Positions 12,945-41,015 of a DNA stretch of 64,000 bases are shown here, in pieces. The stretch covers positions 292,454,001 to 292,518,000 of the forward strand of contig CM097883.1 of assembly GCA_044892505.1 (NCBI GenBank). The letters are read 5' to 3'. Every line of letters starts with the position of its first letter. The first letter of the stretch is position 1. Origin of the DNA: Schmidtea nova (taxonomy: Eukaryota). Below the pieces are notes generated by a model, which did no database searches, was not told the origin of the DNA, and worked only from the letters and a program-made list of their open reading frames with translations. A program made the position numbers and the translations under genes.

Positions 12945-13421
12945 ATGACTAAACACAGATTCACCATCAAAAAGCGACGAGAACGAGCCCGAATTAGCCC
13001 ATTAAAGCCGGCTCCATTTGAAATTTTGCAACAAATCCATCAAAAAATGTGGGCATGGCGCCGAGAGCTTGAAACCGCATGTCCATTTACAGTATGGGAC
13101 CATCCACGGCATCACGTATGGTACCCGGGATGCGCTAGCTGGCCAATCATTCCAGACGAGGAATTCGAATCATGGCACGCCGCCTGGTTCGTCCTGATGT
13201 TAGATAAACGGGGATTCCCGAGATGTGTAATCTATTGGGGGTTCATTCCAGCCTCCACATTCAAGGAATTGGGGTTCACTTTCCATACAGCAATACGACC
13301 CCTTCGGGAAGCCGAGAGGATCCGTTTTCAGCAGGCCTCGTCCAACTCCACTGGAATCAGCTCTCATCTACAAATCAGATCGATATTTTCGTACCGAGGG
13401 AAAGTGACCGAAGATGGATAG
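12945..13421 (+). CDS. LTR ORF1, 158 aa, Trp-rich, unknown function
   Basis: ATG ORF richer in GC than the flanks; identical protein in the 3' LTR; preceded by ttctag, followed by AATAAA. Confidence 0.65.
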   Translation: MTKHRFTIKKRRERARISPLKPAPFEILQQIHQKMWAWRRELETACPFTVWDHPRHHVWYPGCASWPIIPDEEFESWHAAWFVLMLDKRGFPRCVIYWGFIPASTFKELGFTFHTAIRPLREAERIRFQQASSNSTGISSHLQIRSIFSYRGKVTEDG

Positions 13422-13757
13422 TTGAATCAATGGCCACCTGTTCTAAATTAAATAAATGTTTTAGAGAAATCTGAAGTGTTTCATTTTGTTAATAGCGCTA
13501 TAATGTAGATGAGAAATTTATTAACCTCTAGTGTTGTAGATATTACAGTCAGTAGGACATTCTTTCACTAATGTAAAACAGTTGAGTAAGAATTTTGAGC
13601 CTCCAATCATTAAATAGAAAAATAATTTTTGTGTAAAGATTTAATACTTAAACACAGTAGTATGCATTTTTGCTCCTAAATCGTAAATAGTCACTTAATT
13701 AAAATGACCTTGTTGATAGGTTCTCCAGCGAATTTATCGTTATAATATTCAGACATC

Positions 13758-14342
13758 ATGCCGGTTTCAGAAAACTCGAAGAGAATCATGGGACAAATCC
13801 AAGATAGAAAGTTGAGGGACCAGCAGCGGCAGATCAAGCGACTCACGGTCGCCAATGATGAATTGAGAGCGAAGTGGTTCTCGCCCGAACAAATGAAGGA
13901 CCAATCGAAAAAACTCGAGCGAATGCAGGAAGCACTAACCGCAACTAAATTGGAACTAGACGCCGTCCAGAGAGAACTACGAAATTGCCTAAAGGCAGTA
14001 ACAAGAAGTTATATCGACTCCGAATTACGAGCGCTAATCCGGCCGATCATGGCTCAGCGCTGGACACAAAGTACTTATCAAGATGTCGCTTGCGGGACGG
14101 AAGATGGTATCATCATGGCCCCCACTCTTGTAACGGCCGATTTGCCTACTTTTCACAGTGATCCATCGAGAACAATGGCGTCAGCACCTGTCCTAAACCA
14201 ACAGCTTCGAAAACACCGAATGGGATCGCGACAGCGTCGTCGTCGCCGAGAATTTGCGAAGCGCCTGGACGAGCAAATCCACCACTTGAACTCCTTAACC
14301 GAAGCGGAGTTGATTCAGGAGATTAGTCTGGAGTTTGCGTAG
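13758..14342 (+). CDS. LTR ORF2, 194 aa, coiled coil plus Arg-rich motif
   Basis: Copy in the 3' LTR; diverged homologue at 61921-62406; RKHRMGSRQRRRRRE; AATAAA near 14385. Confidence 0.8.
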   Translation: MPVSENSKRIMGQIQDRKLRDQQRQIKRLTVANDELRAKWFSPEQMKDQSKKLERMQEALTATKLELDAVQRELRNCLKAVTRSYIDSELRALIRPIMAQRWTQSTYQDVACGTEDGIIMAPTLVTADLPTFHSDPSRTMASAPVLNQQLRKHRMGSRQRRRRREFAKRLDEQIHHLNSLTEAELIQEISLEFA

Positions 14343-14909
14343 GAAAACATCAGTGTCAGATAACAACCTGTTTTTTTTTATTTTAATAAAAGTGTTTTTT
14401 GTGTAAATTTTGTCTCTCATCGTGTGATTTCACTAAATAAAATAAATGACTCGATTAAATCATAGAAATAGAAAATCTCATCAGTATTTTTCTCGGACCG
14501 ACCGTTTCTACGTAGAGACTGATTAATTACCTTGTAGATCCGTTAAGGAAAGTGCAATTGGGGAAAGCGGGTGATAGATCATGAGGACAGGTAGTATAAA
14601 ATTCATGGGGAAACGAACATCCATAGAATGTAAATGCGTAAGACCTTCTATCGGCAGCAAGGACCCGAGGGAAGATAAATGGGGAGTAGTTTTGGCAACA
14701 AAGCTCACCTGCCCATCATTTTTCCACCACCGTATGCAGTACCAACTTGACTAGTAGGGAATAGGCAAGGGCATACGCGTGTAGTAGTCATGTTATGTAT
14801 GGTTATGGGCGTGGAATCCCTAGTATACGTACTCATCAATAGTCGTTCAATTTATGATTAACTATTTATTTGAATTACTTAAAACCCACCCATAATCCCA
14901 ACATAAATT

Positions 14910-14922: not shown

Positions 14923-15250
14923 ATGATTCAACTTTGTTTTTATGCGGAAAAGGTGAACCCAATGACAACAAAGAGTTTTAAAATCAGAATTTTATGAGTA
15001 ACCGAAAGAGTAATCGAGACGAAAGCGAGTTGCGTAGAAATAGATAGTTATAGACAGAGAAGTAAAACAAATTGAGTAAATAAATACAACAACTCAATGA
15101 AATAGATAAAGTAAATAAATGCAATTATAAATAACAGGTAGGGACGACAATTTACCGAAACACGGGGGGAGGCTACAAACTGTCGAAAACGAAACACAGT
15201 ACTACTTTTCCAATAATATTAACACATTATTTAAATAAATTATCTAGGAA

Positions 15251-15712
15251 ATGGAGGAAAAACTGAAAGAAATCGAAGAATTTTTCAACACCGAGAACGA
15301 AACATTTGAGACAGTCTGCGAAAAAATAACCCGAATAAGAGCATCCGAATATGAGGAACCTACGACACAAACTGAGGAAACAACTGAGTTAATAAAAATC
15401 ATAGAGAAAGTAAATAAACTCGATATAAATACGCGATATAAATGGTACAAAGCACGATTAGAGGATGCCGAGTTGAATATCAGATGCCGACATATAGAAC
15501 AGCAGTTAAGCCTAACATATAACCGATGGATGTCGCAAGGGGTCGAGGCAGCAAAACAATATAAACAATGTTACATATGCGAAGACAGTGAAATCCAAAT
15601 AATGTTTCTACCATGCGGACATTTTCGATTCTGTAAAAACTGTGCGAATAAGTGTGATGAGTGCCCCATGTGCAATTTCTCTGTAGCTGATAAAATTGTA
15701 GTTTATTTATAA
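15251..15712 (+). CDS. 153-aa protein with C-terminal IAP/Mdm2-type RING-HC finger
   Basis: CYICEDSEIQIMFLPCGHFRFCKNCANKCDECPMC...KIVVYL at the extreme C-terminus, as in IAP RINGs; no BIR motif seen. Confidence 0.85.
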   Translation: MEEKLKEIEEFFNTENETFETVCEKITRIRASEYEEPTTQTEETTELIKIIEKVNKLDINTRYKWYKARLEDAELNIRCRHIEQQLSLTYNRWMSQGVEAAKQYKQCYICEDSEIQIMFLPCGHFRFCKNCANKCDECPMCNFSVADKIVVYL

Positions 15713-17419: not shown

Positions 17420-18801
17420 GACAGGAAAATTGAGTATACAAAAGTAATCCCGTTGAGAAAAGGAGAAAAGAGTGTCATAATAAAACCAACAGAGAAGAAA
17501 GTCGACAATAAAAGTAACAAAAAAGATCAGACCAGTACTACAACAAACCCAACAAAACAGAAGAAAGCCGGCAAAGATAGTAACAAAAACCCAAAGGGAA
17601 GTAAAGCAAGGCAGATAATAATACAAAAGTCGATTATCGAAAACGATAAATTATCAGTAACAAGCAACAGTTCAAGCAACAAAGAAAATCAAGCAGAACC
17701 CGAGAGAAACCCAATAAGCGAAATAGAAGTCGACAAAACCAACAACGATTATATAGAAGAAATAGAAGACGAAGTAGAACAAGAAACAGAAAGTGACGAT
17801 ACCGATAACGATAGTAAAACATCGGACAACGAATCAGCAAAGGAAACTGAGATCGACATAAATTCAAGTGACGAACATAACAGTGAACTAGAAACAAGAG
17901 GAAACGAAAGTAAAATAACTACAGACAGTGGAATTGAAATGAGCGAACCCAGAGAAGAGATAAAAGACAAATTTTCCGGAGAACCGTTTATTGGAGATGC
18001 GAGTAAACTGGAAACTTTCTTAAAGGAATTTGGCATATTCGTGGAAGTATGCAAGTGGAAACCAGAAACAACTGTAAGCAGAATTCAGCTATATTTAAAA
18101 GATAGCGCATTAGATCTATATTTGGAAGCAAAAAACGGAACTAATCCACCTACAAGTTGGTCAGCGATAAAGGACTTTTTCCAACAAACCTTCCGAATAA
18201 ATAAAGTATTGAATGAGGCATTCACGGAATTCTCAATGAGGAAACAAAAGATAAATGAATCGAATGCGGTATATGCAAGCGAATTGAAAAAGTTAGCAAA
18301 GTTGATCTTTAATCAAGACAGCCCAATAAATGAGGAGTTAATGGCAGCTATCTTTGTGGGAGGATTAAGAAGACCCGACATAAGAGCGCAAGTTGGATGT
18401 CAAGGTTGTAAACCATCGACCAAGCACTAGAAACAGCTAATAGATTTGAACTACACATGATAGGAAATGATGGTAGAATCTATTTAGCTATGGATACAGC
18501 ACAAAACGAACAAGAAGTGAACCTGAATAACCACATTCCAAATTCACAACAATTAAACCGACCACCACCGCAACGAAGGAATGAAGGGAATAAAGTATCA
18601 AACTACGGAAATCAAAGCAATTACAACCCCCAAGGACCAACGAAACAATGCAAAACATGTGGGAAATTGGGACATTGGCAACAAGAATGTTATCAGAACT
18701 TGAATTGTGGAAAATGTGGAGTAAAAGGACATTCAGAGAGCAGATGTTACACAATAACCTGTTTTAATTGTGGACGACCTGGACACCTATCAAGAAATTG
18801 C
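17420..18801 (+). CDS. gag: Gag: acidic/basic N-terminal extension, capsid domain and three CCHC knuckles; 1-nt frameshift at ~18410
   Basis: Ty3-like CA (FLKEF...LYLKDSALDLY...SWSAIKDFFQQTF...YASELKKLA...FVGGL); frame change restores TIDQALETANRFE; knuckles CKTCGKLGHWQQEC, CGKCGVKGHSESRC, CFNCGRPGHLSRNC at 18649-18801; start codon unresolved. Confidence 0.9.
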
Positions 18802-19401
18802 GGACAAAGAAGCAATCAACGAGGAAACTGGCAGAATACCGGAAACCGACAAAACTATGGAAACCAACCAACTGGTGGAAACCGACAGAATTATGGAAAT
18901 CAGCCAAATAATGGAAACCGACCGGAATACGGAAACCAACCAAATAGTAATAATAATAACCAAAATAAAAATACCACTAAAGAGATACATTTAATGCAAG
19001 AGGCTCAAAGATTGACGGAGCTGATAAACAATACAACCAGAGGAAATCCGCAAACAGGTCAACAACAAATCAACATGATGAGAAAAATAGAAAGCGAAAA
19101 CGAACGATTGAATCGGGAAAGCCAAGCACGACATGCTCAGGAATGGGCAAGAATACAAAGAGAAGAGGAACAAAAACAGCAAGAAAGAGAACGACAACCT
19201 CTAAGAATTAATATGATGAGAGCAACCAATCAAACAAATACCCACGAGAAAGAGACGGTGCCAGAAATGAATCCAACAAACCTGAATCCAACCAATAACG
19301 AAAGTCGAAAAGAAATAGTACCAGGAAGCGAAGAAACAGAAACAGAGAAGGAAGTAGAAAAAGAAGGGAACCAAGAAGAGAAAAGGAAACTCGGGAAAAG
19401 G

Positions 19402-21770
19402 GGAATGATGGTAATTTTGCCAAACAACCACGTGTTTCGATTCCAATATAACATAAAGGAAGAAGTAGGAATATTGTTCAACAAAGTGAATGAAATGGCT
19501 CCAGGAGTAACGAAACTGCCCAGAGAAGCATTCCTAAAAATAGAAGGTGCACCAGAAGTAAAATTGAAACTAACAGATACATGGGAAAACATGGGAGTAG
19601 TAGAGACAAAAAGAAATGTGATGGTAATCAAGGAAATAGAACCAGAAGGAATTCCATCGCCAGTGCGTCACGAAACACGAATCAGTCGAATATTTAAAGG
19701 GAAAATGATACGAAGACGGTTGCGAGAAATAGACGAGTTGGAACGAAAAATGAGAAAAGTCAAAGTAGTAGACGACGAGAGTAAATCAACACAAAAAACT
19801 ATCGGAAGGGAAACGAAACCAACGGAAAATCCACCAAATGAAACCAACCAAATAAAACACATTAACATGTTGAGAGGCCAGGCAAAGAATTTTTCAGACG
19901 ACGAAGAGGATAGTGACGTCAGTAGTCTAGCAGGGGACATGCTAAACGAACCAGAAATTGAAGACAAAAAGATAGAAGTAGTAAAGACACCAGAAACTAT
20001 TCAAGTAAAAGAGGACGAGATCCAGAAATTACTAGATAATGCGCTAGAAGTAATATATAATGAGGAATTCATTGACAAGAAACACTATCGAAAATTCATG
20101 AGAGCGATATTACAAATGAACTATAAAGAGTGGTTACCAGGCCGGGAAGTAGAAACACTAAGCCAATACGTAGGAAAATTATTAAAAGAACCACTCCATG
20201 AATATATAATACTAATACAGATAAAAACATGTTTGCCAAGGATTTGGATCAAAACTCCACTCACGGAGGATATTTATCAATGGGTAGAAGACAGATTAGG
20301 GAGTTCGTATAAGAACAAATTCCTCTATTCACAGAATGGACTAGTGAAGAAAAGGACGCACCTGATAGAAACAGGCATATGGCCAGGAGAGGTGACAACA
20401 TTATCGATATGCGATGATAAGATAGAAGAGAACCTACAAGAAGTAGCAAAGGAAGCAAATACGTGTTTCGAGAGAAAAATAAAACCACGGTTAGAGTACG
20501 AAAAAGGACGAATCTTACGAGGAAATCTAAATTCCATGATAGAACAAATCATCCCACAAATCAAAAAACATAGAAAGGAGTTAATGAGAAGCGAATACGA
20601 GAAGTTGAAACGATGTATCGAGTGCATACGTGACACAAGTCACACGAGATGGTCACAGATCTCATACGGAAAAGTAATTGCAAAAATGGGAAAAGCAATG
20701 TTCAGACAAGGGAAAATAACAGATCTAAAAATTTCAGTGGAACTGCCTAATGAGGATACCAAGGAAATTGAAGTGGTAGCAGATTGTACCATAAAAGAAT
20801 TAGTAAATGTCATCAACGAGACACTATTACAAAGAGAACCAGAAGAAGAATGGGAAGATGACATAATCATGAAATATAATGAACATGTATTATGGGATCA
20901 CGATGAAAGACGACTATATAAGATGGGTATATGGGACAATCACCAAACCATCCACGTTATCAGAATGGACGATACACCAAGAGAAACTGCTAAAGATGAG
21001 AAAAGAGAACGAGAACGACAAAAAGAAGTTGTGCACAAACTACAACAGATAGTAGACATTTATCGAAATTGGCGGATTTGGCCAGAATGGGAAAATGTAT
21101 TAGAAGAACTCAATCTCAACAGACGATTACGAACACCTGTAGAAAAGAAATGGAACGAGCGAGGAAAATGTTGGGAACCAAAAGCAGGCGAATACGAAGA
21201 AGAATATGAAATAGGCATAGAAGACGATCACAAACCGGAAACCGGAAGAGTCTGTATGGTAACAAGAAAAGCCATGCCAGCGGATTTAGACGGACAAGAA
21301 ACGGCAACCATGTGGTTGGAAAGAGAAAAACAAAAAACGGAAGAATTTGTCGAAATATAAAAAACCAATGCTCATGGCAAGAGAAAATTAGTAAAAGGTC
21401 TCGCAGATTTTTTCGTAGTTAATGGAGAAGACATAACATGCTTGCGTAAAGTAGCAAAAGCAATCGCCGAATACAAAAGAATTAACGAGTGGTGTCCAGA
21501 ACAATTGGATCACGTAATTAAAAAATGGAGAAACCAAGAATTCTCGCAGGAATCGCCACAGAAAGTACACCTAAGAATAGTATATCCGAACCAAGAAAAG
21601 GAAGAGTTTTGGGTAGGGATAGCGGAGAAAGTTCGAGACATTAAAAAGAAATTGAGATATGAACCACCATTCCATTTACAACACCAAGGACGATCATTAG
21701 ATAACAGCTTGGAAATTGGAATAACGCCAGCGCAATTAGATATCGCAAATACATTGACAGTGGCAGCAAT
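19402..21770 (+). CDS. Polyprotein segment with four ubiquitin-like domains; in-frame TAA at 21358-21360
   Basis: By-eye alignment to ubiquitin at ~19402-19632, ~20200-20412, ~20725-20967 (clearest: LKISVELPNEDTKEIEVVADCTIKELVNVINE...LYKMGIWDNHQTIHVI) and ~21562-21770 (FHLQHQGRSLDN). Confidence 0.65.
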
Positions 21771-22257
21771 AGCAGGTCAACCATTGAAATTGAAAGAGGA
21801 AAAGAAACCAAAAGGAAGTATGAGTACGCCGAGCCCAATGAAATCGGTAATGACTCCAGGAACAAGCTCAGAACAAGCTAGAACAACACCAAGAGAGACA
21901 AGAGAAAGAACACCACCAGAACCATACGATGTAGACGAAATTTTTACAGATAGCGATGATATGTTAGAGGAGTTAATAGAGCTAACAAAAGAGAAAGATG
22001 ATAATATTTTCGAAAGAATTCAAGAATTACCAACAGCAATACCGGTAACCAACACCGAAGATGAAGTCGAACAAGAAATAATCATAGAAGAAGTAAATGA
22101 AATAGCAGAAGAGGAAGCAAGGAGGGCAAATGTAGAAAATGTACAATTCACACAAGAAATGGAAAGATGGTTAGAAGAAAGAGCCAATGAACCAAGAGAC
22201 GTCACAGAAGAAACTGGACGAGAAACAAGATTAGTAGAAACGGGCACGACAATGGAT

Positions 22258-22281
22258 AAACGACCTAGAGGTAGACCCAAG
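22258..22281 (+). other. AT-hook motif KRPRGRPK in the polyprotein
   Basis: Canonical PRGRP core flanked by basic residues. Confidence 0.7.
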
Positions 22282-22419
22282 ATAGATCCAGCAAATGTAG
22301 TTATAAAATCAAGAGAGGAAAAAAGACGGGATCAATGGGATTTGTGTCTAAAGAAACTAAATAAAATAGCCGAAACGAAAGAAAAAGAAACAACACAAAC
22401 ATACCAAGGCGAAGAATGG

Positions 22420-22800
22420 ATATCAAAGATGTTAATGGAAATACTGGCAATAATCGATCCAGAAGTAAAGAAATGGTGGAGAATAAACGAAATAAGCGAA
22501 AGGGCGAAATCACTGCGCCATCGCACCAATCCTACCAGAACTAATAAAAGTAAAGACAAGGTCAAACCAGTTAGATTGGCAAGGAACCACGATGTTGATA
22601 AAGAAGTTAACGGAAGGAGCAGAGACGGATAACAAATATTTAATAGCTATGGCATACACCATTTACAATCTGCTGACACTGAGTAGAGGTCGACTGAAAC
22701 CCACAGCACTTGAAAGACATATAAAGAATACAGCCAAAATTATAGAGAAGGAAATAGAACCGTACATCATCAGTAAAGGAGGATGGGAAACATTCACAAA
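22420..22800 (+). CDS. Bcl-2-like domain; frameshift at ~22500
   Basis: KEIEPYIISKGGWETF versus Bcl-xL BH2 DHLEPWIQENGGWDTF; degenerate BH1-position helix KYLIAMAYTIYNLL. Confidence 0.75.
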
Positions 22801-22918
22801 AACGAACCAAAAGAAAAACCAAGCCAAAAATATGAAAAAGAAATTCGAAGAGATATTGGGAGAATTGGAAAAGGAAAAGTCGGGAACAGGAAACGGGAAA
22901 TCATCACTAAACTTGAGT

Positions 22919-24735
22919 TCTATCATTATGATGATGTTAATATGGATGATTAGTACTGACGGCGCAACAGCATTTGAAGTATTCGATTGCGATCAAATGG
23001 CATTAGGTGAAAAATACTCATTACGAGGGACAGAACAATGTAAAGACGCAACCCCAACGGAGCTAAAAACATTAAAAAAGAGACAATTATACCACGTATA
23101 TCAGGAAGCTGAAATGATAAGAACAATGGTCAGAGAATGCAAAGTTTATAAAACCAGATTTGCTTTTTATTGTGGACACCGCCATTATTCAGCAATCGTG
23201 ATGCCAGGAACGGAAAGAGAATCGGTAATGCTGCAAGGAGAAGACTGTGAAAAATTATTCAAACATGGAGAAGTAGAGACTAGAGATAGAGTAAAGATAA
23301 GAGGAAAAACGGGAGTGATATTGCAACAAACATATTATGTAGCAGGAGCTATTACGGGAGGAGAAGGGTACTGCCAAGGAGCAACATATCCAATATTCGG
23401 AGTAGCAGCAACAAACCTAGTGGTAATAGATACCTATACAGTAGAATTAAAAACGTACGAGGCATTCTTCGATCCAACAACGGGAGAAATGAAAACCCTG
23501 CCCATGTGCAAAATCGAGTCAAACACTTGCCAAACCGGTATGTCAACCTTAACATACCAGATACGAGGAAAAGAATGTCAACTACAACTGTTAAAGGAAG
23601 CAGAATTCGATGAGATACAAGGGAAAACCTTCCAAGAGGAAGAAGAAGACGAGGCAGCAAGAGGAAAAATACTTCAAGACACAGTACGGGGAGAGAAAAA
23701 GATTGAAACCCGAACACAAGAAAAACAAATTAAAATGAGAAATACACCAACGGTACTAATTACCTCAGATGCAGATATCGGAATGAGGTTTGTAAAAGGA
23801 AAAACAGCCTTGAAATGCGGAATAACCATGTTGGAAACCAACTACCCCGGCATTTTCGTATCGAAACAAGAAGTACCTAGTGCGAAACGCAAAGTGAACA
23901 CGAACGATGTTAAATTACACCTTTACATGAACAATAAGATGGATTTTCTATTCCATAGAGGACAAGCGTCACTACAAAAAGTGTATTACGACTTAATTAA
24001 CAACGATTGCATATTAAATAGGGAAATATTAAAGACAAAACTAGCAGTAGCAATCACAAACCCGGATAGTGCAATGCCACTATTACCATTGAGAGAAGGT
24101 CATTTTGGAAGGGTAGTCGGAGAGGTCATGTATGTATACATATGTAAAAAGACAAACGCGAAGGTAGCGACAATGACAAAATTACAACCAGGTCAGTGTA
24201 CTAACGAACTAGAAATCGAATATAAAGGGAAAGTAAGATATGTGCAACCAGTGACAAGAATCATAAATCCAGTAAGCTTCGAACCAAACCCTTTCAATTG
24301 CAGCAACGCATATGGACCACTATACCAAAAACCAGACGGGAATTGGGTTATGTTTCCGTCAAGAACAGAGGTACCAGCACCAAGGGAATTTGAATTGATG
24401 CAACTATCAAAAGGACGAAAATTTAAAGACGTAGATGTAAGTAATATGGGATTCTATAGCGCAAAAGACTTAGAGGCAGCGAGACAAAACATACTATTTC
24501 CAGCAAGAAGGGAAGCGGTGCTATCCAGTATTGTAACAATAACAGGAGGAACAAATTACCAAGGTGGACCAAATTAAGAATTATTATTGTCACCAGCCCA
24601 CTTTAAGAAGGCAACGGAAAACATGATGAAAGCGATGTGGGGAAGATTTTTAATATTTGGACAAATGATGGCAGGAATACTTGGGGTTATACTAATTATA
24701 CAAATAATACGGGTAATAATAACGCAAATGTTAGC
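22919..24735 (+). CDS. env: Envelope: internal signal peptide, class III (chuvirus/gB-type) fusion glycoprotein and TM; in-frame TAA at 24575-24577
   Basis: SSIIMMMLIWMIS..ATA|FEVFDC...YSL....C; ECK...FYCGHRHYS; NDCILNREIL...GEVMYVYIC...CTNEL...QPVTRII...CSNAYGPLY; TM FGQMMAGILGVILIIQIIRVII lies after the stop, in the same frame. Confidence 0.85.
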
Positions 24736-25284
24736 CTGTTTTGACATCTATAAAAGAGAAAAGAAAGTAAATTGGAAATTGGTGGTAGGATTCTTACCAT
24801 TTTTGGCTAAAACAATGGTATTACACGGTCATTCAAAAGATATTCACCGAATAAAGAGACTCCTAAAAATACTGGCAAAAATGAAAGGAACCGATGAAGA
24901 GGTGGGACGAAAATTTAAAAAGATAATGAATAACGAGCAAGCAAGACAACAACTAAAGAAAGAGAGAAAAGGACTATGGGAAAGAATGAAAGGGTACAGA
25001 ACCCAAGACGATTCCAGTGACGACGATGATGATGATAACGAAGGAGGTCAAGTATTTAAAAATCAAGTACCACAGTACGTCGAAAAGAATCCAGCGGAAA
25101 TGTGGAAGTGTTACGCACCCCCACCAACCATGTACCAAGAACCAACACCAGGGATGAGACAAAATACAATGCAAATGATGCCGATGACAAACATATATCC
25201 TATGATACCAGAAGACTATAGAACGAGACGGTGCAGAAGCGTAGATCCGCAAGGAGACTCACATACAATTGCAGTAATGTCATC

Positions 25285-28200
25285 AAACACCGGTCCAGTA
25301 TTAACTACAACAATCGAAATTAACGGAAGGGAAATAGAAGCGATGATTGATACAGGAGCAAATATCTCAGCAATAGATATAAAATGGATACCACAAGAAC
25401 AAAGACGGGATATTGAGAGAACCAACGTTCACGTAATAGCATGCAGTAAAGAAGTAGTAGAAGTTGCCGGAAGATGGTGGGTAAAGATAAAACATCAAAA
25501 CACGGAAATCGAAACGTACGTAGCAGTAATACCAGCACTAAGCGTACCATGCATTATAGGCACGGATCTGATGCCAGCATTATTTAAAGAAATAGTTATT
25601 GATCTCGGAACAATGAGACTAAAGGATAGGACAGGACAGATATGCGCAATAGAAGCAAAAGTAACAAGTTCGAAACAAATAATCGTACCAGCACGGAGAG
25701 AGAAAATATGCTTCGTAAAAATAGACCCTACAATAGAAGGTGACATGATTTTTGAACCCAGTAAAAGATTTGAAAAGAGAAAGTCGTTGCCAATGGCAAG
25801 GGGATTAGTGAGTGCGAATGAAAACGGAGAAATCCCAATAAATGTAGTAAATTTCGATGAAGAGGATAAAATAATTTATGAAAATGAAAGATTAGGTAAG
25901 CTAACTCCAATGATGGATATCGAAATACCAATAAGAGAGGGAGAAAAAGATGAAGAACCCACCTGGAACATTGATAGCCAACTATTAAATGAGGATCAAA
26001 AGAAACAGCTAGAAAGATTACTGATAGAATATAAAGACATATTCGCAGCATCCGATTTAGATCTAGGGACATGCGACGTCACACTACATACGATTCCACT
26101 AACAGACGAAACGCCGATTGCGTTAAGACCATACAAGTTAGCTGAAGCGCAAAAATCAGTAGCAGAAGCAGAAGTACAGAAAATGCTAGACGCAGAAGTA
26201 ATTGAACCAAGCTGCTCACCGTGGCAATTCCCAGTTGTAATGGTGAAAAAGAAAGACGGAACACAACGATTTTGTATTGATTATCGGAGATTAAATTCAG
26301 TTACAAAAAGGGATACATACCCATTACCGGACATCAACGAGATGTTATTGACATTACAAGGAGCGGCATATTTTACATCATTGGATTTGAAAAGCGGATA
26401 CTGGCAAATTAAAATGAAGGAGGAAGACAAAGAGAAAACTGCTTTCACTATCGGAAGAGACTTGTACCAATTTAGGAAAATGCCATTCGGACTAACCAAT
26501 GCGCCAGCATCATTTCAAAGATGTATGAATTTCGTTACCCACGGCATAAAACAATGCATGGTTTACATTGATGACCTACTAATCTACTCAAGCACATTTG
26601 AACAACACATCCAAGATATCAGAGATGTATTTGTGAGATTGAGACAATGGAAACTCAAGCTCAAACCATCGAAATGCGATTGGGCAAAAGAGAAAGTGAC
26701 ATTTTTAGGACATATTGTGTCCGCAAAAGGAAAGGAACCGGATCCCAGAAACATTGATAAAGTAAAAGAATGTCCAATACCAAAGACTATAACGCAGATC
26801 CAAGAATTTATCGGATTATGCGGTTTCTATAGAAAATTCATAAAGGATTACGCAGGAATTGCAAAACCAATCCAAGAGCTAGTAAAGAAAGACGTATCGT
26901 TCATATGGGGAACCGAACAACAAACAGCTTTCGAAACATTGAGAGACAAGCTAATAACTGCACCAATATTGGTTCACCCGGATTTCAAAAAGCCATTTTT
27001 ACTCGCAACCGACGCAAGTGGATATGCAGCAGGAGCAGTGTTAGGACAATATGATGACGAGGGAAAAGAGCGGGTAATCGGATATTATAGCAGAACATTC
27101 AAGAAACACGAGAAGAATTATTCAGTAACGGAAAGAGAAGCATTGGCAATAATATTAGCAATAAAACACTTCAAATATCTATTATGGGGACACATTATAT
27201 GCATAACCACAGACCATCAACCACTTGTATGGCTAGGACAACATAAGGAAACATCCAGCAGGTTAATGAGATGGGCGATGCAATTACAAGAATATTCACC
27301 AGATATAAAATTCAAATCAGGAAAAGCGAATGCCAACGCAGATTGCATGTCAAGATTAACGTTTCCAGAACTAACAGACCCAGAAGTGCAAAGAATATGC
27401 ATAGTGATAGCAGAGGATTTGGATTTCAGCGAGTTAAAGAAAGATCAGCAAGAGGATAAAGAACTAAGATCCATCATAGAATTCCTAAGCTCACGGAATA
27501 TGGATGTATTCAAAGACAATGCGGAGTTAAAAGAACACATGAGGAAATACCAACATCGATACACAATAGAAAAGGATGGTTATTAATACAGGATGGAGAA
27601 AAACGATTAATGTGTCTGCCAGGTAATAGACGAAAAGAGATAATAACTCAATACCACGACGGAAAGTTGGGAGGACACATGTCCGATAAGAAAACATTAG
27701 ATCGCATGAGACAAAAATATTATTTGCCAACAATGGACGAGGACGTAAAGGAATGGATAAAGAACTGTTTAACTTGTGCCACAAGAAAGGATAGTGGGAA
27801 GAAATGGAAAAATCCCTTAAAACCCATGCCAATACCAGCGGAACCAATGACTACCATTGCGATGGATGTAATAGGACCATTGCTAGAAAGTTTAAACGGG
27901 AATCAATATATATTGGTAATAACGGATTATTTGACTAAATTCCCTGAGGCATTTGCGATGCCGGATCAAAAAGCAAAGACCGTAGCAAGAATTTTAGTAG
28001 AGGAAATATGTTGTCGATACGGAACCCCGAAACAAATACTAACAGATCAAGGAACAAATTTTATGAGCGAAATATTAGATGAAGTAACAAATTACTTCAG
28101 AATAGCCAAATTACGAACGTCACCATATCATCCGCAAACTAATGGACAAACGGAAAGATTTAACGGCACATTGATTCGAATGTTATCCAATTATGTAAGC

Positions 28201-28740
28201 AAACACCAAACAGATTGGGATGAGTACATAAAGCTATGTCTAATGGCATACCGAATGTCGATACACGCAGCAACAAAATTGAGTCCATTTCAATTAATGT
28301 ATGGAAGGGAATGCAATATGCCAATAGATCTTGAATATCAACCACCTTTGTCTCAATATATGGAGGAAGATGATTACGTCACCAAATTCAAAGAACGAAT
28401 GCAAGAGATATGGAAGACAGCAGAACTAAACATAAAGTTTTATCAAGAAAGTTACAAGGACCTACACGATCAAAAGAAAAATGTTAAAACAAATGATCTT
28501 AAACCCGGAGATTGGGTAATGATAGAAACCCCAGAAATAATACCAGGAACCGTTAAAAAACTACAAAGACCAGGAAAAGGCCCTTACGAAGTTATATACA
28601 AAAAGGAAAACAATGTGAAGGTAAAACTTGTTAATCGACCATTGATACGACCAATATACGTTAATACATGCAGATGTAAAAAAGTACCAAAGACAATAAC
28701 CACAGCGCCAGAAGAACGAATAATAACCAGATCCCAGACA
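25285..28740 (+). CDS. pol: Pol: aspartic protease, dUTPase-like spacer, RT, RNase H, integrase; 1-nt frameshift at ~27581
   Basis: DTGA 25349-25360; YIDD 26564-26575; TDASG...EREALA...TDH...NADCMSR; HHCC finger, MDVIGP, TDQG, QTERFN, GPY. Confidence 0.97.
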
Positions 28741-30566: not shown

Positions 30567-32912
30567 ATGAAAACGTACCTTAATAATTGGATAAAAGCCA
30601 AGAAAGAGATTCTAGATTGTAAATTAACCGATAAGGAAATACCTAAGCAGGCAGAAACACAAGAATATGAAGCAAGTATACTCACAACCATAACGTATGA
30701 AAAAATGATAGAAGCAATTAATGTCGAGGACGACATTTTCAACGACCAAAGGGGAGGCGACAATACAGGAAACGACGACGATAGTACTCGAGAAAATCCA
30801 GAGGATCATGAGTTATCAGATAAAGAGGACAGTGAAGAGAAAGGAAGGGACACAGAGAAAAATGATAAGAAAAATGAATTTGGGAAACAAAGAAACAACA
30901 ACTATAAAAATAAAAACGAAGCAAAAAGAACAGGCTACAAACAAACAATAAACCCATTCTTTAAACCAGAACTATTATTACTAACGGTAATCATGACCTT
31001 AATTAGTCCAACTCAAGGAATGATATGTGAAGAAAGAGCGACAATACAAATTAGAAACGCAAAAGGAATCGAACGAGTATGTTGGTCAAAAAAGGACAAA
31101 ATCTCGGGACAAAATAGTCAAATGGATTGCAGGATCTCAGAATACGAACAAGAAATCATAGAGATCGATGACTTAGAGCTAGATACTTGGTACAAAATAT
31201 GCACCATCAGAAAACAAAGGAATCCAAGATCACACAACACAATCGCATGTGCAAACTACCTAACACCCAAAGTAACCATAACAGTACAGCAGTCATCCAA
31301 AGGAGACTATGTCGTAGGAAAGTGTGGAAGAACAGAGACACAAGGAACAAAAAACAAGAAACCCCAGACAATAGACAGACGAACAACGCCAACTATACGA
31401 ATTACAATAGACAAGCCCGAAGCAAGAGTAACCACAAACGAGACCGAAAGAGTGACCTACCAAACAGAATTACTATGTTTAGCACTCATATTAACAATGT
31501 TAAAACGGTTAGAAGAAGGGATAGACATTGACACAATGGCAGTAACAGAGATGAACGACACCCAAAATACCAACCCAAAGTGTTGGGCCCGAAACAACGA
31601 AGAAATTGGCATAAGCGAAATAAAGAGGAGTCGGAAAAGGAAAACAAATAAAGTAACCAAGATACCAAAAGTAAAAGCAGACAGGACGTATGAACTATGT
31701 TTACTAGAAAAAGAAAGACACAAGAAAGGAACGACAATTTGTAAAACATTTCAACCTGGGGAGGCAATAAAGTTCATAAGAAGAAGAAGAAGAAATATAC
31801 GCACCAAACGGAGAACAACTATAATGTTAGAGTTAACCGGGATAGAACCGGACGTCAAAGGCGTATGCTGGAAGAAGCAGGAAAAGAAAACAAACCAGAA
31901 TATACCGCCGCAATGTCGAACAAACAGAGGAACAACCACAATACAGATCGAAGGATTAGAAAGCAATCAAACGTACGAAATATGCCTGATTAGGAAAAGC
32001 GACAAAATAACAGTAAATGAATTGGAATGCAAATTATATAAAACACCCACCAGAACAAGAGTTGGAAAGACATCGCGAAAAAGTAGAAGACAACGGAACA
32101 AAGGAAAAGCGAGGTATACCACTACCTTTAAACCTAATGGACAACAGAAAAACCAAGAAATACAAATAAAAACCGAAAAGAATACTACAGCAACTCTTAT
32201 ACTATGGAGAATAGACAATAAAACGTTAGAAATATGTTGGGCAGTAGTTCAGGAACAAAAAGAAAGACAGCCACGATACTGCGAAAACGTAAAAGGAAAA
32301 GAAGAAATGAGTATCAAAAATCTGAAATTTAATAGAGAATACGAGATATGTGCGGTAGAAAAGACGGACATATTGGGAAATCAGCAGGAAAGATGCGAAA
32401 CGTACTACACACCGGTAAACTCAACGTCCAAAGGGAAAGTGAGAAAACTCGAATTTAAAGAATTAAGTCAGACAACGAAACAAATGGACGCAGAACAAGT
32501 AGTAATAGACCCTTACGCAAGATGGACGCCGGAAGAAGTAATTAAAGAAGTTAAAAGAAAACAACAAGAACGAGAACAATTACTAAATAAACTAAAGGGA
32601 CAATACGGACCAATGATTACCCAGAGTGAAATTACGAAGATGGACGTAAACAAACAAGTTAGAGAACTAATTGGTCTAGGAATACTAGCAGCAACTATTC
32701 CAGTAATAACAGTGTTATTAATAATATGGATATACGATGTACTCAACAAGAAACCAATAACACATTGGCCAGATATAAAAATTATGAACTACAGAATAGA
32801 ATTACCGGAAGAAGTACAGAAAGAATTTCAAAGGAGGACGAAAGGTAAAGAATTTTGGAGACAAATAGAAGATGAAGAGCGGTACGAAGGAAAGACAGTG
32901 ATGGTGATATAG
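30567..32912 (+). CDS. 781-aa membrane protein with four Cys-containing FN3-like repeats; frame open from 30462, probably continuous with the polyprotein
   Basis: Signal-like ELLLLTVIMTLISPTQG; repeated W...I..L....Y.IC motif (IDDLELDTWYKIC, IPKVKADRTYELC, IEGLESNQTYEIC, IKNLKFNREYEIC); polybasic linkers; TM LIGLGILAATIPVITVLLIIWIY. Confidence 0.75.
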   Translation: MKTYLNNWIKAKKEILDCKLTDKEIPKQAETQEYEASILTTITYEKMIEAINVEDDIFNDQRGGDNTGNDDDSTRENPEDHELSDKEDSEEKGRDTEKNDKKNEFGKQRNNNYKNKNEAKRTGYKQTINPFFKPELLLLTVIMTLISPTQGMICEERATIQIRNAKGIERVCWSKKDKISGQNSQMDCRISEYEQEIIEIDDLELDTWYKICTIRKQRNPRSHNTIACANYLTPKVTITVQQSSKGDYVVGKCGRTETQGTKNKKPQTIDRRTTPTIRITIDKPEARVTTNETERVTYQTELLCLALILTMLKRLEEGIDIDTMAVTEMNDTQNTNPKCWARNNEEIGISEIKRSRKRKTNKVTKIPKVKADRTYELCLLEKERHKKGTTICKTFQPGEAIKFIRRRRRNIRTKRRTTIMLELTGIEPDVKGVCWKKQEKKTNQNIPPQCRTNRGTTTIQIEGLESNQTYEICLIRKSDKITVNELECKLYKTPTRTRVGKTSRKSRRQRNKGKARYTTTFKPNGQQKNQEIQIKTEKNTTATLILWRIDNKTLEICWAVVQEQKERQPRYCENVKGKEEMSIKNLKFNREYEICAVEKTDILGNQQERCETYYTPVNSTSKGKVRKLEFKELSQTTKQMDAEQVVIDPYARWTPEEVIKEVKRKQQEREQLLNKLKGQYGPMITQSEITKMDVNKQVRELIGLGILAATIPVITVLLIIWIYDVLNKKPITHWPDIKIMNYRIELPEEVQKEFQRRTKGKEFWRQIEDEERYEGKTVMVI

Positions 32913-33394: not shown

Positions 33395-33485
33395 ATAAAT
33401 AAAGCGAAAAATTGTAAATATGTAAAAACAAAAACAAGAAAAATCAAAAAATAGATAACAAATCAAGTGTATATATCATTGTAGA

Positions 33486-34868
33486 ATGAATACAGAAGGA
33501 AAAGCCGAAGAGCGGATAATCGAAATTTTGAGAGCCGAGAACAGGAAATGGAGTCAGAGACTCACTTGTGTAAATTGTAAAAACATAATATTGAAACCAA
33601 GACAAACCCTATGCGGATGCAGAGTATGTACCAAATGCATACACGAGTTAAGTATGAAAAGACCACCAGAATGTCCAGAATGCAAAGAAGGACAAATAAA
33701 ATTCGAAGAAACCGGACCAGATAGAGCAACTCAGAGAGAAATCATGAACACGAAAACCGAATGTATAAATCAACCATGTATATGGCAAGGACAAATACGC
33801 GATCTCGAGAACCATCTGGAGAACTGCGAGGAGAAGAGAACTGAATGTAACAAATGCCAACAAAAAATAACTATAAAGAATAAAGAGCAGCACAAAGATG
33901 AATGTAAAGAAGAGGAAAGTCTATGCGAATATTGTGGAACTCGAGAAACGAGGAGAAAGATCGAAGAAGAACACCTGAATGTAAAAGAGGAGAAAGTATG
34001 TAGACAATATGTAGGAATATGTTCAAACGAATGCGAGATAACGGTAGAAGTAAAATTACAAGAACATTGGAAAGTGTGCACGGAGAAACCAAGGGAATGT
34101 CCTTATAACAAACAGGGATGTATGGAGAAAAGAACGCAACAAACCATGAAACAACATCTGGAGGAAGCATTGCTAAAGCATGCGGAAATGACAAACGAAG
34201 CAACAAAAGAAACCGAACAAACAATCAAAAAATTAGAAAGAGAAATAGAGTCACACAAGATAATGGTAAACCTACTGTTGGAAACCAGAGAGCAATTCGA
34301 ACTAACACGAGAAAAGATGGAGGAAAAGATAAAAGCTATCGAAGAATTGGCTAAAGGAATGAAAATCCAGTAAAACAAACTCACCCAGGATACCGAGGAA
34401 AAGCTACCAATCGCACCATATGTGTGGAAAGTGACAGATTTTAGAGACAAATTAACAGAGGCCAGAAATATGACGAAAACAGCAGTAATAAGCCCACCAT
34501 TTTATTTATGGAGAAACGGAGCTAAAGTGAGATTGAAGCTATACCCAAATGGAGACGGAAGAGGACGGGGAACACATGTGTCAATATTTTTCTCGCTATG
34601 TAAAGGAGAATACGACGACCTCGTAGAATGGCCCTTGAAAGTAGGAGTCATTATAAGAATCAGAAGTGTAACAAAACCGGTGGAAAAATTCTTTGAGACA
34701 GAGAAACATGCGAGCACGAGCGAGAAACCAACCACAGAATGTGGATTAGCAGCGGGAGAACCGATGTTTATAACGAAAGAAAGCCTATGGGAACGATTAT
34801 ATGCAGACACCCTATACATAGAAATGGAAAGGAATGAGAAAGCGGATAGAAAAGGATGGTTGACGTAA
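33486..34868 (+). CDS. Full-length TRAF-like protein (RING, TRAF zinc fingers, coiled coil, MATH); in-frame TAA at 34371-34373
   Basis: CVNC...PRQTLCGCRVCTKC...CPEC; PDRATQREI...C....C.WQG; WKVTDF...ISPPFY...KVRLKLYPNGDGRGRGTHVSIFFSLCKGEYDDLVEWP. Confidence 0.92.
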
Positions 34869-36886: not shown

Positions 36887-36901
36887 GGGGTCCCCGAGTG
36901 A
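36887..36901 (+). promoter_or_regulatory. Atypical polypurine-tract position
   Basis: ggggtccccgagtga directly precedes the TG of the 3' LTR; not purely purine. Confidence 0.45.
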
Positions 36902-38289
36902 TGTTGGGCCAGCCAAATAGAGGGAAAAGTGAAATAAAAGTGGAATAATTAAAACAAAAAGAGAAAAATAAGGTAAAAAGGGGAATATTAATTTGTTAAA
37001 AGAAAAGAGTAATATAGTTAAAATATAGATAAATTAAGAACAAACTATAAATAAAAATAAATGAATTTCTAGATATTAACGGGCCCAGGAGACATCTAAA
37101 AACAAATAAAATACAAATAATAATAATTAAAACCAAATAAAAGTACTTGTTATTGAATAATTGTTTTTGAAACCCAGACCTCCGAGGAAGAATACAATCT
37201 AAAAAAAATAAAAATTAATTAGAATCAAAAATAATAATCAAACCCACCATGAAATTGGCCAAACTTGATTGGTCAGTCTAGACCCGACTGATCAGTATAA
37301 ATACTGATCAGATTTTGAACATAATCAGATTGTTAAGATTGAAATTGTTAACCCCAGACTAAGTTGAGTTACATAGCATAACCAGACTGAGATCAACAGC
37401 TTGACAGAATTTTTCAACACTACAGATTAATCTTTGACCAAATTTTGTTACAAGTAGACAGACTGAAATCAATATTCAAAATTCGATAAGCGAAAAACAG
37501 CAATCTATAACCGGATCAATTAGGTACTTTGGTTTCATTTTCGTTTTATTATTTTTGTCATTCGATTCATGTTGATCATTTATATGTATTTATATATTAG
37601 AAATAAATTTTATTAACATAATATCGAATTTTTCATCATATTAATTTTGCGCCGATTGGGAGCTTTAGGTTCCCAAGGTGTCAATCCGTGGCGTGGTGCT
37701 CGAGGGCTCCACACACGGTAAAGTAATAAATAAATTACGATTTTTAGTAGTTGAAGAGATTTGCACATGGGACACCCAACGAATCCGGGGAATTATTTTC
37801 CGATCATTTTAGCTATAGAGGAGGCGATTTTCAGATAAAGTCTAACGATGTAGGATAGGAAAGAATTTTTTTTTTTTTTTTGACTGTGAGGAGGCACAAT
37901 TTTTCACCCTCACCACAGCACAGTCACTAAATAAACATCTAATCAACCGTAGAAAATTATGTCGACCGCATTTGATACGAAAGGGGCGTTTTTCCGGGTA
38001 AGCTAGGAGGTACATGATGTGAGAGAGTTTCCGTTTTGAGATACAAATGTTTCGAGGTCCACGCAGACAAATCACCAATTTTCGACTATATTATTGATCG
38101 TAAACCGATAAATCTAAGCAGACACGAGAGTAATGTATACCGTAACGAGCAACAGTTTTTTCTTGATTTCAGTTAAGGTCTAAGCCGAAGGCAAATAATA
38201 AAGGCATCACGATGAGAGATAACATCTACTATAATTAATTATTGATTTAAATTGTTAACTATTATAAAATTCAGCATCGTTCTAGTATC

Positions 38290-38766
38290 ATGACTAAACA
38301 CAGATTCACCATCAAAAAGCGACGAGAACGAGCCCGAATTAGCCCATTAAAGCCGGCTCCATTTGAAATTTTGCAACAAATCCATCAAAAAATGTGGGCA
38401 TGGCGCCGAGAGCTTGAAACCGCATGTCCATTTACAGTATGGGACCATCCACGGCATCACGTATGGTACCCGGGATGCGCTAGCTGGCCAATCATTCCAG
38501 ACGAGGAATTCGAATCATGGCACGCCGCCTGGTTCGTCCTGATGTTAGATAAACGGGGATTCCCGAGATGTGTAATCTATTGGGGGTTCATTCCAGCCTC
38601 CACATTCAAGGAATTGGGGTTCACTTTCCATACAGCAATACGACCCCTTCGGGAAGCCGAGAGGATCCGTTTTCAGCAGGCCTCGTCCAACTCCACTGGA
38701 ATCAGCTCTCATCTACAAATCAGATCGATATTTTCGTACCGAGGGAAAGTGACCGAAGATGGATAG
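38290..38766 (+). CDS. LTR ORF1 copy in the 3' LTR
   Basis: Protein identical to 12945-13421. Confidence 0.65.
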   Translation: MTKHRFTIKKRRERARISPLKPAPFEILQQIHQKMWAWRRELETACPFTVWDHPRHHVWYPGCASWPIIPDEEFESWHAAWFVLMLDKRGFPRCVIYWGFIPASTFKELGFTFHTAIRPLREAERIRFQQASSNSTGISSHLQIRSIFSYRGKVTEDG

Positions 38767-39102
38767 TTGAATCAATGGCCACCTGTTCTAAATTAAATAA
38801 ATGTTTTAGAGAAATCTGAAGTGTTTCATTTTGTTAATAGCGCTATAATGTAGATGAGAAATTTATTAACCTCTAGTGTTGTAGATATTACAGTCAGTAG
38901 GACATTCTTTCACTAATGTAAAACAGTTGAGTAAGAATTTTGAGCCTCCAATCATTAAATAGAAAAATAATTTTTGTGTAAAGATTTAATACTTAAACAC
39001 AGTAGTATGCATTTTTGCTCCTAAATCGTAAATAGTCACTTAATTAAAATGACCTTGTTGATAGGTTCTCCAGCGAATTTATCGTTATAATATTCAGACA
39101 TC

Positions 39103-39687
39103 ATGCCGGTTTCAGAAAACTCGAAGAGAATCATGGGACAAATCCAAGATAGAAAGTTGAGGGACCAGCAGCGGCAGATCAAGCGACTCACGGTCGCCAA
39201 TGATGAATTGAGAGCGAAGTGGTTCTCGCCCGAACAAATGAAGGACCAATCGAAAAAACTCGAGCGAATGCAGGAAGCACTGGCCGCAACTAAATTGGAA
39301 CTAGACGCCGTCCAGAGAGAACTACGAAATTGCCTAAAGGCAGTAACAAGAAGTTATATCGACTCCGAATTACGAGCGCTAATCCGGCTGATCACGGCTC
39401 AGCGCTGGACACAAAGTACTTATCAAGATGTCGCTTGCGGGACGGAAGATGGTATCATCATGGCCCCCACTCTTGTAACGCCCGATTTGCCTACTTTTCA
39501 CAGTGATCCATCGAGAACAATGGCGTCAGCACCTGTCCTAAACCAACAGCTTCGAAAACACCGAATGGGATCGCGACAGCGTCGTCGTCGCCGAGAATTT
39601 GCGAAGCGCCTGGACGAGCAAATCCACCACTTGAACTCCTTAACCGAAGCGGAGTTGATTCAGGAGATTAGTCTGGAGTTTGCGTAG
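39103..39687 (+). CDS. LTR ORF2 copy in the 3' LTR
   Basis: Four amino-acid differences from 13758-14342 (T>A, P>L, M>T, A>P). Confidence 0.8.
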   Translation: MPVSENSKRIMGQIQDRKLRDQQRQIKRLTVANDELRAKWFSPEQMKDQSKKLERMQEALAATKLELDAVQRELRNCLKAVTRSYIDSELRALIRLITAQRWTQSTYQDVACGTEDGIIMAPTLVTPDLPTFHSDPSRTMASAPVLNQQLRKHRMGSRQRRRRREFAKRLDEQIHHLNSLTEAELIQEISLEFA

Positions 39688-41015
39688 GAAAACATCAGTG
39701 TCAGATAACAACCTGTTTTTTTTTTATTTTAATAAAAGTGTTTTTTGTGTAAATTTTGTCTCTCATCGTGTGATTTCACTAAATAAAATAAATGACTCGA
39801 TTAAATCATAGAAATAGAAAATCTCATCAGTATTTTTCTCGGACCGACCGTTTCTACGTAGAGACTGATTAATTACCTTGTAGATCCGTTAAGGAAAGTG
39901 CAATTGGGGAAAGCGGGTGATAGATCATGAGGACAGGTAGTATAAAATTCATGGGGAAACGAACATCCATAGAATGTAAATGCGTAAGACCTTCTATCGG
40001 CAGCAAGGACCCGAGGGAAGATAAATGGGGAGTAGTTTTGGCAACAAAGCTCACCTGCCCATCATTTTTCCACCACTGTATGCAGTACCAACTTGACTAG
40101 TAGGGAATAGGCAAGGGCATACGCGTGTAGTAGTCATGTTATGTATGGTTATGGGCGTGGAATCCCTAGTATACGTACTCATCAATAGTCGTTCAATTTA
40201 TGATTAACTATTTATTTGAATTACTTAAAACCCACCCATAATCCCAACATAAATATATTTGATGGGTTCGCAGATGATGAATACAAAATGACCTCAGTTC
40301 CATAAAGCCAGCAATGAATGAAAATTAAAAACGTGATCAGTCTAGCATTTTTCTATGTTTCGTGTAATTAAAAATGTTTAATAATAAATTTTTTGATGTC
40401 TCAGCAAAAAATAAATGCTACTTAATAACTTTTGACAAGTATTATATCGCTTTTTACAATCTTATTTGTTTTTGCCTATTTATTTAATCAAGTTTTGCTT
40501 TGATTACTTTCTGATTTTCCTTTCAGTGTTGATGTACATAGCTTAAAACTGATTTAAGATAAAAAAACAAAATTTAAAATTTCAGAAGAATCTGGACGTG
40601 TAGGATCAAAATGGATTCCATTTTCTTAATCACCTCAAAAATCTGATCTAGAAAAATCTAATGCTGTTAATTGAATCTAAAAAAAGTTTTTTGTTGCCCA
40701 GTGTAATTTATTAAATATATAGGTTTTTTTTATTATCAAATATTAACTTAAAATATATATGTGATTGGAAATTTCAAATACTCGAATACTAACAAAAATT
40801 GAACTGAATTATTCCTTGCTAGAGACGATGCTAAAATTGAGTTTTCTTCAAGAATAATTTTTATTACTTCATGTTTCGACATTATTGATAAAAGATTCTA
40901 GAGTTAAAAATTAAAAATAATGGTTTTAAATTAATTAAATATACTTTAAAGATAATACATTTTTATATTATTTTTATTTTTGGGATAAAATCCGCCTAAT
41001 AAAATGAAAGAAACT

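Follow-up and report, generated by a model that had tools for sequence, protein, structure and literature searches.

Within the 64,000-nt stretch of Schmidtea nova DNA analysed here (the window, to whose positions all coordinates refer), a 28.7 kb LTR element of the Ty3/gypsy class and Burro type harbours, ahead of its envelope glycoprotein (Env), a diverged domain of predicted Bcl-2 fold. The reading that we favour as a whole, and hold to be rather probable, is that the hydrophobic helix that follows this domain is the likely signal peptide of Env, and that cleavage behind it would leave a product that ends in the Bcl-2-like domain and is tethered to the endoplasmic reticulum (ER). The domain is not a separate gene, but part of a single giant polyprotein.

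The element extends from 11552 to 40249 and is bounded by a 5′ LTR at 11552–14903 (+, TG...CA) and a 3′ LTR at 36901–40249 (+, placed by LTR–LTR comparison with the ends read), which are 99.5% identical over 3358 aligned nt. Because the two LTRs differ at just 11 positions and by 3 gaps, we take the insertion to be young; yet, with so few LTR differences, this copy has several stops and frame breaks. Its ORF pieces give Pfam matches to Gag, CCHC knuckles, a Monjiviricetes-type fusion glycoprotein, protease, reverse transcriptase (RT), RNase H and integrase, as well as to ankyrin, RING, TRAF zinc finger and MATH domains. Gag and the upstream polyprotein pieces (Retrotrans_gag, CCHC knuckles and a weak ubiquitin-like match) are found at 17420–21360 (+) and are broken in the window's copy. 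Env, which is of the Monjiviricetes type, lies at 22973–24760 (+, PF24664 at E 2e-57 and 3e-9), ends in a C-terminal transmembrane segment with a hydropathy peak at 24671, and in this copy contains an internal stop at 24575–24577, while protease, RT, RNase H and integrase, located from ORF translations and Pfam, occupy approximately 25300–28700 (+), with one frame break. A length of ~30 kb, long LTRs, a single ~5,000-aa Gag-BCL2-Env-Pol ORF and cargo connected with apoptosis and ubiquitin mark the element as Burro-type by comparison with the architecture described in PMC6431247.

Several further frames were observed in and around the polyprotein. An ORF at 15248–15712, just inside the 5′ LTR, encodes a C3HC4 RING (E 9e-12) and is IAP-like by position; no match to a BIR domain was found by Pfam in the element ORFs scanned. 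Three stretches within 19400–21790 look ubiquitin-like by eye, one of them with a weak Pfam match (E 0.035). A 198-codon open frame is present within each LTR (13746–14342 and 39091–39687) and has no convincing Pfam match, and a TRAF-like ORF at 33459–34868, with TRAF zinc fingers and a MATH domain, is split by a stop in the window's copy. Towards its end, at 30960–32770, the polyprotein region contains a second signal-like segment together with cysteine-bearing repeat units, for which Pfam gave no match, and a transmembrane segment; a second luminal excursion is likely at this point.

In the window's copy, the Bcl-2-like domain is distributed over two frames. Its N-terminal part, comprising a BH4-like helix 1 and the start of helix 2, is encoded at 22402–22514 (+) in the frame of ORF 21361–22632, and the remainder of helix 2 through helix 8 at 22516–22810 (+) in the frame of ORF 22496–24577. 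The initial annotation had started the domain at 22420 and placed a frameshift around 22500; a break is indeed present, but it is located near 22515, inside predicted helix 2 of a domain that starts near 22400. At the break (22514–22516) the window's copy is 5 nt shorter than 19 of the 19 other copies compared, and it is because all of these carry the 5 additional nt that the break is decay of the window's copy. Programmed frameshifting at 22515 was considered and rejected, as the other copies have no shift. Seventeen of these 19 copies are open across the whole domain, and, among the best 81 protein matches (95–100% identity) of the 150 listed, 34 lie in frames of at least 5,000 aa, 24 being exactly 5,140. 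Thus, Gag, the Bcl-2-like domain, Env and Pol share one open frame in many copies, commonly of 5,140 aa, and an unaltered natural copy (L008) was used as a stand-in for the Bcl-2-like domain in later tests.

The BH2-like motif EIEPYIISKGGWETF, whose close match to Bcl-xL BH2 was noted initially, is present at 22751–22795 (+) and contains the tripeptide GGW. Searched as a single sequence, the domain has Pfam Bcl-2 (PF00452) as the best of its two matches, at E 0.092 and 13.7 bits against a curated cut-off of 31.4, and has no match in a PDB sequence search; the window's family alone, compared with seven host-like Bcl-2 rows, reaches an HHalign probability of 33%. An element profile of seven rows matches Bcl-xL at E 5e-8, and a profile of five rows, none of them selected by Pfam Bcl-2, still does so at E 4e-4, the top row in that search being an unrelated designed repeat protein. 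Compared with each other by HHalign, the element and host Bcl-2 profiles give a probability of 96% (E 1.6e-9). For the other family representatives, Pfam Bcl-2 is the best match in five of six, two of which exceed the cut-off, and for the sister subfamily there is no Pfam match. Searches for protein homologs found nothing apart from two weak matches (P0003 and P0004) in the representative search, the ESM Atlas returned no usable match and the metagenome contigs no match at all. The viral contigs yielded a single locus, which we rejected, its match being short and its ORF unrelated in appearance.

Within the genome, a search with Pfam Bcl-2 finds host-like loci and, in addition, numerous matches that lie in frames of ~3,000 aa. 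When loci were chosen by Env family alone, blind to Bcl-2, a BH2-like GGW was found in frame ahead of Env in 28 of 30 (two families), in agreement with the expectation that GGW would be conserved in related elements. For the alignments, we used a subset of the loci in which GGW and [YF]DC are no more than 110 residues apart (92 of 110, 76 of them stop-free). In all eight families sampled in the genome, the Bcl-2-like domain is the last folded unit ahead of the hydrophobic helix. Over 226 codons, dN/dS between the window's family and the sister subfamily is ~0.05 (10 × 9 copy pairs, with dS near saturation), falling to 0.02 in the helix; the charged linker that connects domain and helix (22811–22900, +), for which a low-confidence model predicts a helix of its own, is constrained nearly like the core (dN/dS 0.08). 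In a short tree of 76 columns, the element domains form one group (94/96), with the window's family on the longest inner branch. Six of the host-like loci (L026, L028, L032, L040, L046 and L049) represent an expanded and divergent host-like Bcl-2 group, two members of which are nearest to the element domains in a midpoint-rooted tree, with no firm support.

Two AlphaFold models were built from element rows only, with pLDDT values of 44 and 59, the former being too poor for use alone. The latter comprises eight helices, one extra and seven spaced as in Bcl-2, with the family's helices 6 and 7 counted as a single long one; its weak spots are helices 2–3, which are mostly below a pLDDT of 55, and the groove helices, which are poorly resolved. 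In a comparison with 48,161 chains by VIA-align, ranks 1–18 are all occupied by the Bcl-2 family and the first outsider has a Z of 6.0. The top row is KsBcl-2 (KSHV), at Z 8.2 and an rmsd of 3.9 Å over 118 residues (model range 28–166), a Z of 8 being a middling value for helical bundles, and vaccinia A52 comes only at rank 25. Foldseek, which had been proposed as the check on the fold, lists rows that are all of the Bcl-2 family, none at E 0.001, and among its viral rows the top three are viral Bcl-2s (vBcl-2s). Because these individually modest lines (profile searches, HHalign, the Pfam matches of sister families and the structural ranking) point the same way, the predicted Bcl-2 fold is very likely, and the Bcl-2-type fold with a degenerate BH1 that the initial annotation had suggested is borne out at the level of prediction.

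Given this concurrence, and given that a BCL2-like motif was published independently for such elements (PMC6431247), a GGW arising by chance among helices is a very improbable explanation of the resemblance, weak as the single-sequence scores are. The helix at the BH1 position lacks the NWGR typical of pro-survival members, as already remarked in the initial annotation, and has TDNK instead (22625–22636, +, from an alignment read by eye and from HHalign with host Bcl-2 rows); of the motif only the basic residue is kept, Lys taking the place of Arg. Across the nine rows aligned by eye, the Arg position is basic in seven and the Gly is retained in none. It is through the BH1 Arg that the hallmark salt bridge with BH3 is formed, and mouse Boo, in which NWGR is altered, binds no pro-apoptotic partner; M11L and F1, on the other hand, bind BH3 without sequence similarity, and some vBcl-2s act without NWGR (PMC5691656). 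We judge an anti-apoptotic function through a modified BH3 groove to be about as likely as not. The domain may instead be a Bcl-2-fold scaffold that does not bind BH3 and interferes with signalling of the TRAF/NF-κB type, like vaccinia A52, B14, K7 and A49, a use of the fold that we regard as rather doubtful. It has a precedent in A52 and B14, whose Bcl-2 fold is directed against NF-κB (PMC2494871), and is in line with the loss of NWG in the window's family and of the Gly in nine of nine rows, with the long inner branch of this family, and with the TRAF zinc fingers, MATH, RING and ankyrin domains encoded by the same element. It is countered by the best structural matches, which are BH3-binding pro-survival proteins ahead of A52 in rank, if separated from it by small differences in Z, by the retention of a basic residue in place of the Arg in seven of nine rows, and by the ability of M11L and F1 to bind BH3 despite their lack of sequence similarity (PMC5691656).

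The hydrophobic segment SSIIMMMLIWMIS, noted initially some 40 residues behind the BH2-like motif, begins 44 residues past the Trp of GGW and, with its c-region, covers 22901–22972 (+). Hydropathy and the residues at −3 and −1 mark it as a likely internal signal peptide of Env, with the predicted cut between ATA and FEV, after 22972 and before 22973. Cleavable signal peptides combine a basic n-region and a hydrophobic h-region with small residues at −3 and −1. The helix has 19 uncharged residues (KD13 2.36, KD19 1.47) and Ala at both −3 and −1. Nothing ahead of it in the polyprotein pieces is strongly hydrophobic, no 13-residue window upstream of it reaching a KD of 2.0. Nine rows, which represent seven families of the genome and two other proteins and are related rather than independent, all have a basic n-region, then an uncharged run 14–23 residues long, and in all nine the residues at −3 and −1 of a candidate cut, placed three residues ahead of the Env [YF]DC or its equivalent, are small, as would be the case at 6.5% of background positions. 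Among 17 open copies of the window's family, one has Glu at −3. With a KD19 of 1.47 against 2.57 for the Env transmembrane segment, the helix is short if it is to act as a permanent anchor; sums on the Hessa scale, on which we do not rely, are mixed (−1.3 to +5.6).

Whether this helix belongs to the Bcl-2-like domain or to Env is indicated by its spacing. Its distance to Env is fixed, whereas that from GGW to the helix varies between 29 and 45 residues. The tail between helix and predicted cut is DGATA, with a net charge of −1, whereas three host-like Bcl-2 loci end basic; these end 43 codons after BH2, compared with 52–67 residues from BH2 to the cut in the element rows. A tail anchor is a C-terminal helix with a short basic tail, and here the frame continues into Env. 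In other elements, the ectodomain of gB-type Env is bordered by signal peptides or by two transmembrane segments (PMC13524379). Because the spacing to Env is fixed and that to GGW variable, because the tail is not basic, and because of this gB-type precedent, the helix is best read as an Env signal; judged from its sequence, it is probably Env's own signal peptide, which would anchor the upstream product only secondarily. The initial proposal, a Bcl-2 tail anchor doubling as Env signal such that one helix serves two proteins, is thus plausible in effect and less so in origin.

Along the lines of the reading that we favour, the helix would target the nascent chain to the ER and Env would enter the lumen, signal peptidase would cut before FEV, and the transmembrane segment of Env would bring Pol back to the cytosol. 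The upstream product would stay anchored with its Bcl-2-like domain in the cytosol, from where signal peptide peptidase may release it later, and the protease of the element would separate the domain from Gag. Of the outcome envisaged initially for a cut at this junction, the site itself holds as plausible and conserved (nine of nine rows), but the membrane-anchored product of this single cut would be a precursor of ~1,800 residues reaching from Gag to Bcl-2, and not a free vBcl-2, for which another cut, upstream of the domain, would be needed. A similar logic is known from the core–E1 junction of HCV, where an internal signal peptide, once cut, anchors core in the ER and a later cut frees it (PMC5402940); the two junctions are not homologous, the upstream partner in HCV is the capsid, and cleavage in the element is only predicted. 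In the last and least certain step, for which the chances appear about balanced, the domain would dampen host cell death via its modified BH3 groove and so protect cells in which the element is active.

The same helix could serve virus-like assembly, the Env signal either holding the entire Gag precursor at the ER, where budding would follow, or being quickly removed, with the Bcl-2-like domain as cargo that has no need of an anchor. We treat this as a tentative alternative, less likely than the tethering of a Bcl-2-ending product: the fixed Env spacing, variable GGW spacing and non-basic tail are expected from it, as are the flanking segments of gB-type Env ectodomains elsewhere (PMC13524379) and the removal of the anchor of HCV core by signal peptide peptidase (PMC5402940), and a pattern search for protease sites gave no convincing site beside the domain, the nearest upstream match being at 21760. 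It accounts less well for the position of the domain: in eight of eight families no other folded unit separates it from the helix, a place at which it can acquire an anchor, while other cargo shifts position (TRAF/MATH in or outside ORF1 in PMC6431247, and downstream in the window). Conversely, the helix could be a captured host Bcl-2 tail anchor that was recruited as Env signal upon insertion of the Bcl-2 domain. The order of BH2, linker helix and hydrophobic helix does resemble that of three host-like loci, and the single group formed by the element domains (94/96) is consistent with one capture; this origin is nevertheless improbable in view of the c-region and cleavage site, which are in the Env register in nine of nine rows, of the leading hydrophobic segment that Env of the same class has on its own elsewhere (PMC13524379), and of the earlier, basic ends of the host-like loci, 43 codons after BH2 as opposed to 52–67 residues to the cut.

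Ahead of the domain, an extra helix is predicted with low confidence at 22321–22377 (+, model helix 2–20), outside the range aligned to Bcl-2 structures, and contains a BH3-like core, LNKIAE, at 22357–22374. The core L-x-x-I-A-[E/N/S] precedes the BH4-like helix in six of eight families (that of the window and L030, L031, L083, L088 and L111), part of the motif rows having been cut around the motif, and a loose BH3-like pattern occurs twice among the 5,254 positions of the window's polyprotein pieces. Modelled as a complex with the extra helix, the core scored 0.01, which we count neither for nor against their pairing, and a host Bax-like BH3 exon, sought in three stretches, was not found. One may imagine an ER-anchored Bcl-2 made by processing, in which the domain is kept beside the Env signal for the sake of the anchor and the BH3-like helix is a tethered regulator that can be released by the element protease or a host signal. 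We consider this elaborate version unlikely; if true, a reverse-transcribing element would possess an anti-apoptotic Bcl-2 that is functional and regulates itself.

Viral pro-survival Bcl-2s are separate genes of large DNA viruses. With the element domain, KsBcl-2, EBV BHRF1, ASFV A179L and myxoma M11L share a predicted eight-helix bundle and degenerate BH motifs, but the element domain resides within a polyprotein and its anchor would be co-translational and ER-bound. Neither retrotransposons nor retroviruses are mentioned in a vBcl-2 review (PMC11209288). Closest to the window's element are the planarian Burro elements, in which a BCL2-like motif and then an in-frame env are placed between gag and pol: Burro/GYPSM1 likewise has a giant ORF with Gag, a ubiquitin-like domain, the BCL2-like motif, env between BCL2 and protease, Pol, ankyrin repeats and MATH/TRAF cargo (PMC6431247). 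The TRAF/MATH ORF of the window's element is downstream of the polyprotein, whereas Burro cargo is found inside or outside ORF1, and the ORF1 of a Burro-like element of another planarian has 5,140 aa, the commonest frame length here (PMC6431247), which may be either a coincidence or the sign of a close relative. GAG-ENV-POL errantiviruses with HSV/gB-type env, reported for Platyhelminthes, Nematoda and Bryozoa, share the gene order, and the main text of their description does not mention Burro, BCL2 or apoptosis (PMC13524379).

The Bcl-2 domain and its position before env are thus already published, as a motif only, and the passages that describe Burro in PMC6431247 do not discuss a signal helix, cleavage or topology. 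Among the papers that literature searches listed, none deals with a helix shared by Bcl-2 and Env; Grohme 2018 and Lee 2026 may already cover the helix. As new leads there remain the cleavage site, which is conserved, and the additional BH3-like helix of six of eight families, which together render the processing model testable with small natural fragments. If this model holds, it would explain how cytosolic Gag and Pol, a luminal Env and a membrane-bound apoptosis regulator arise from one frame of 5,000 residues. Next to the IAP known from reports on Burro1, it would also provide another means of opposing cell death; the IAP region of Burro1 is, at second hand, described as protective for stem cells (PMC13465017).
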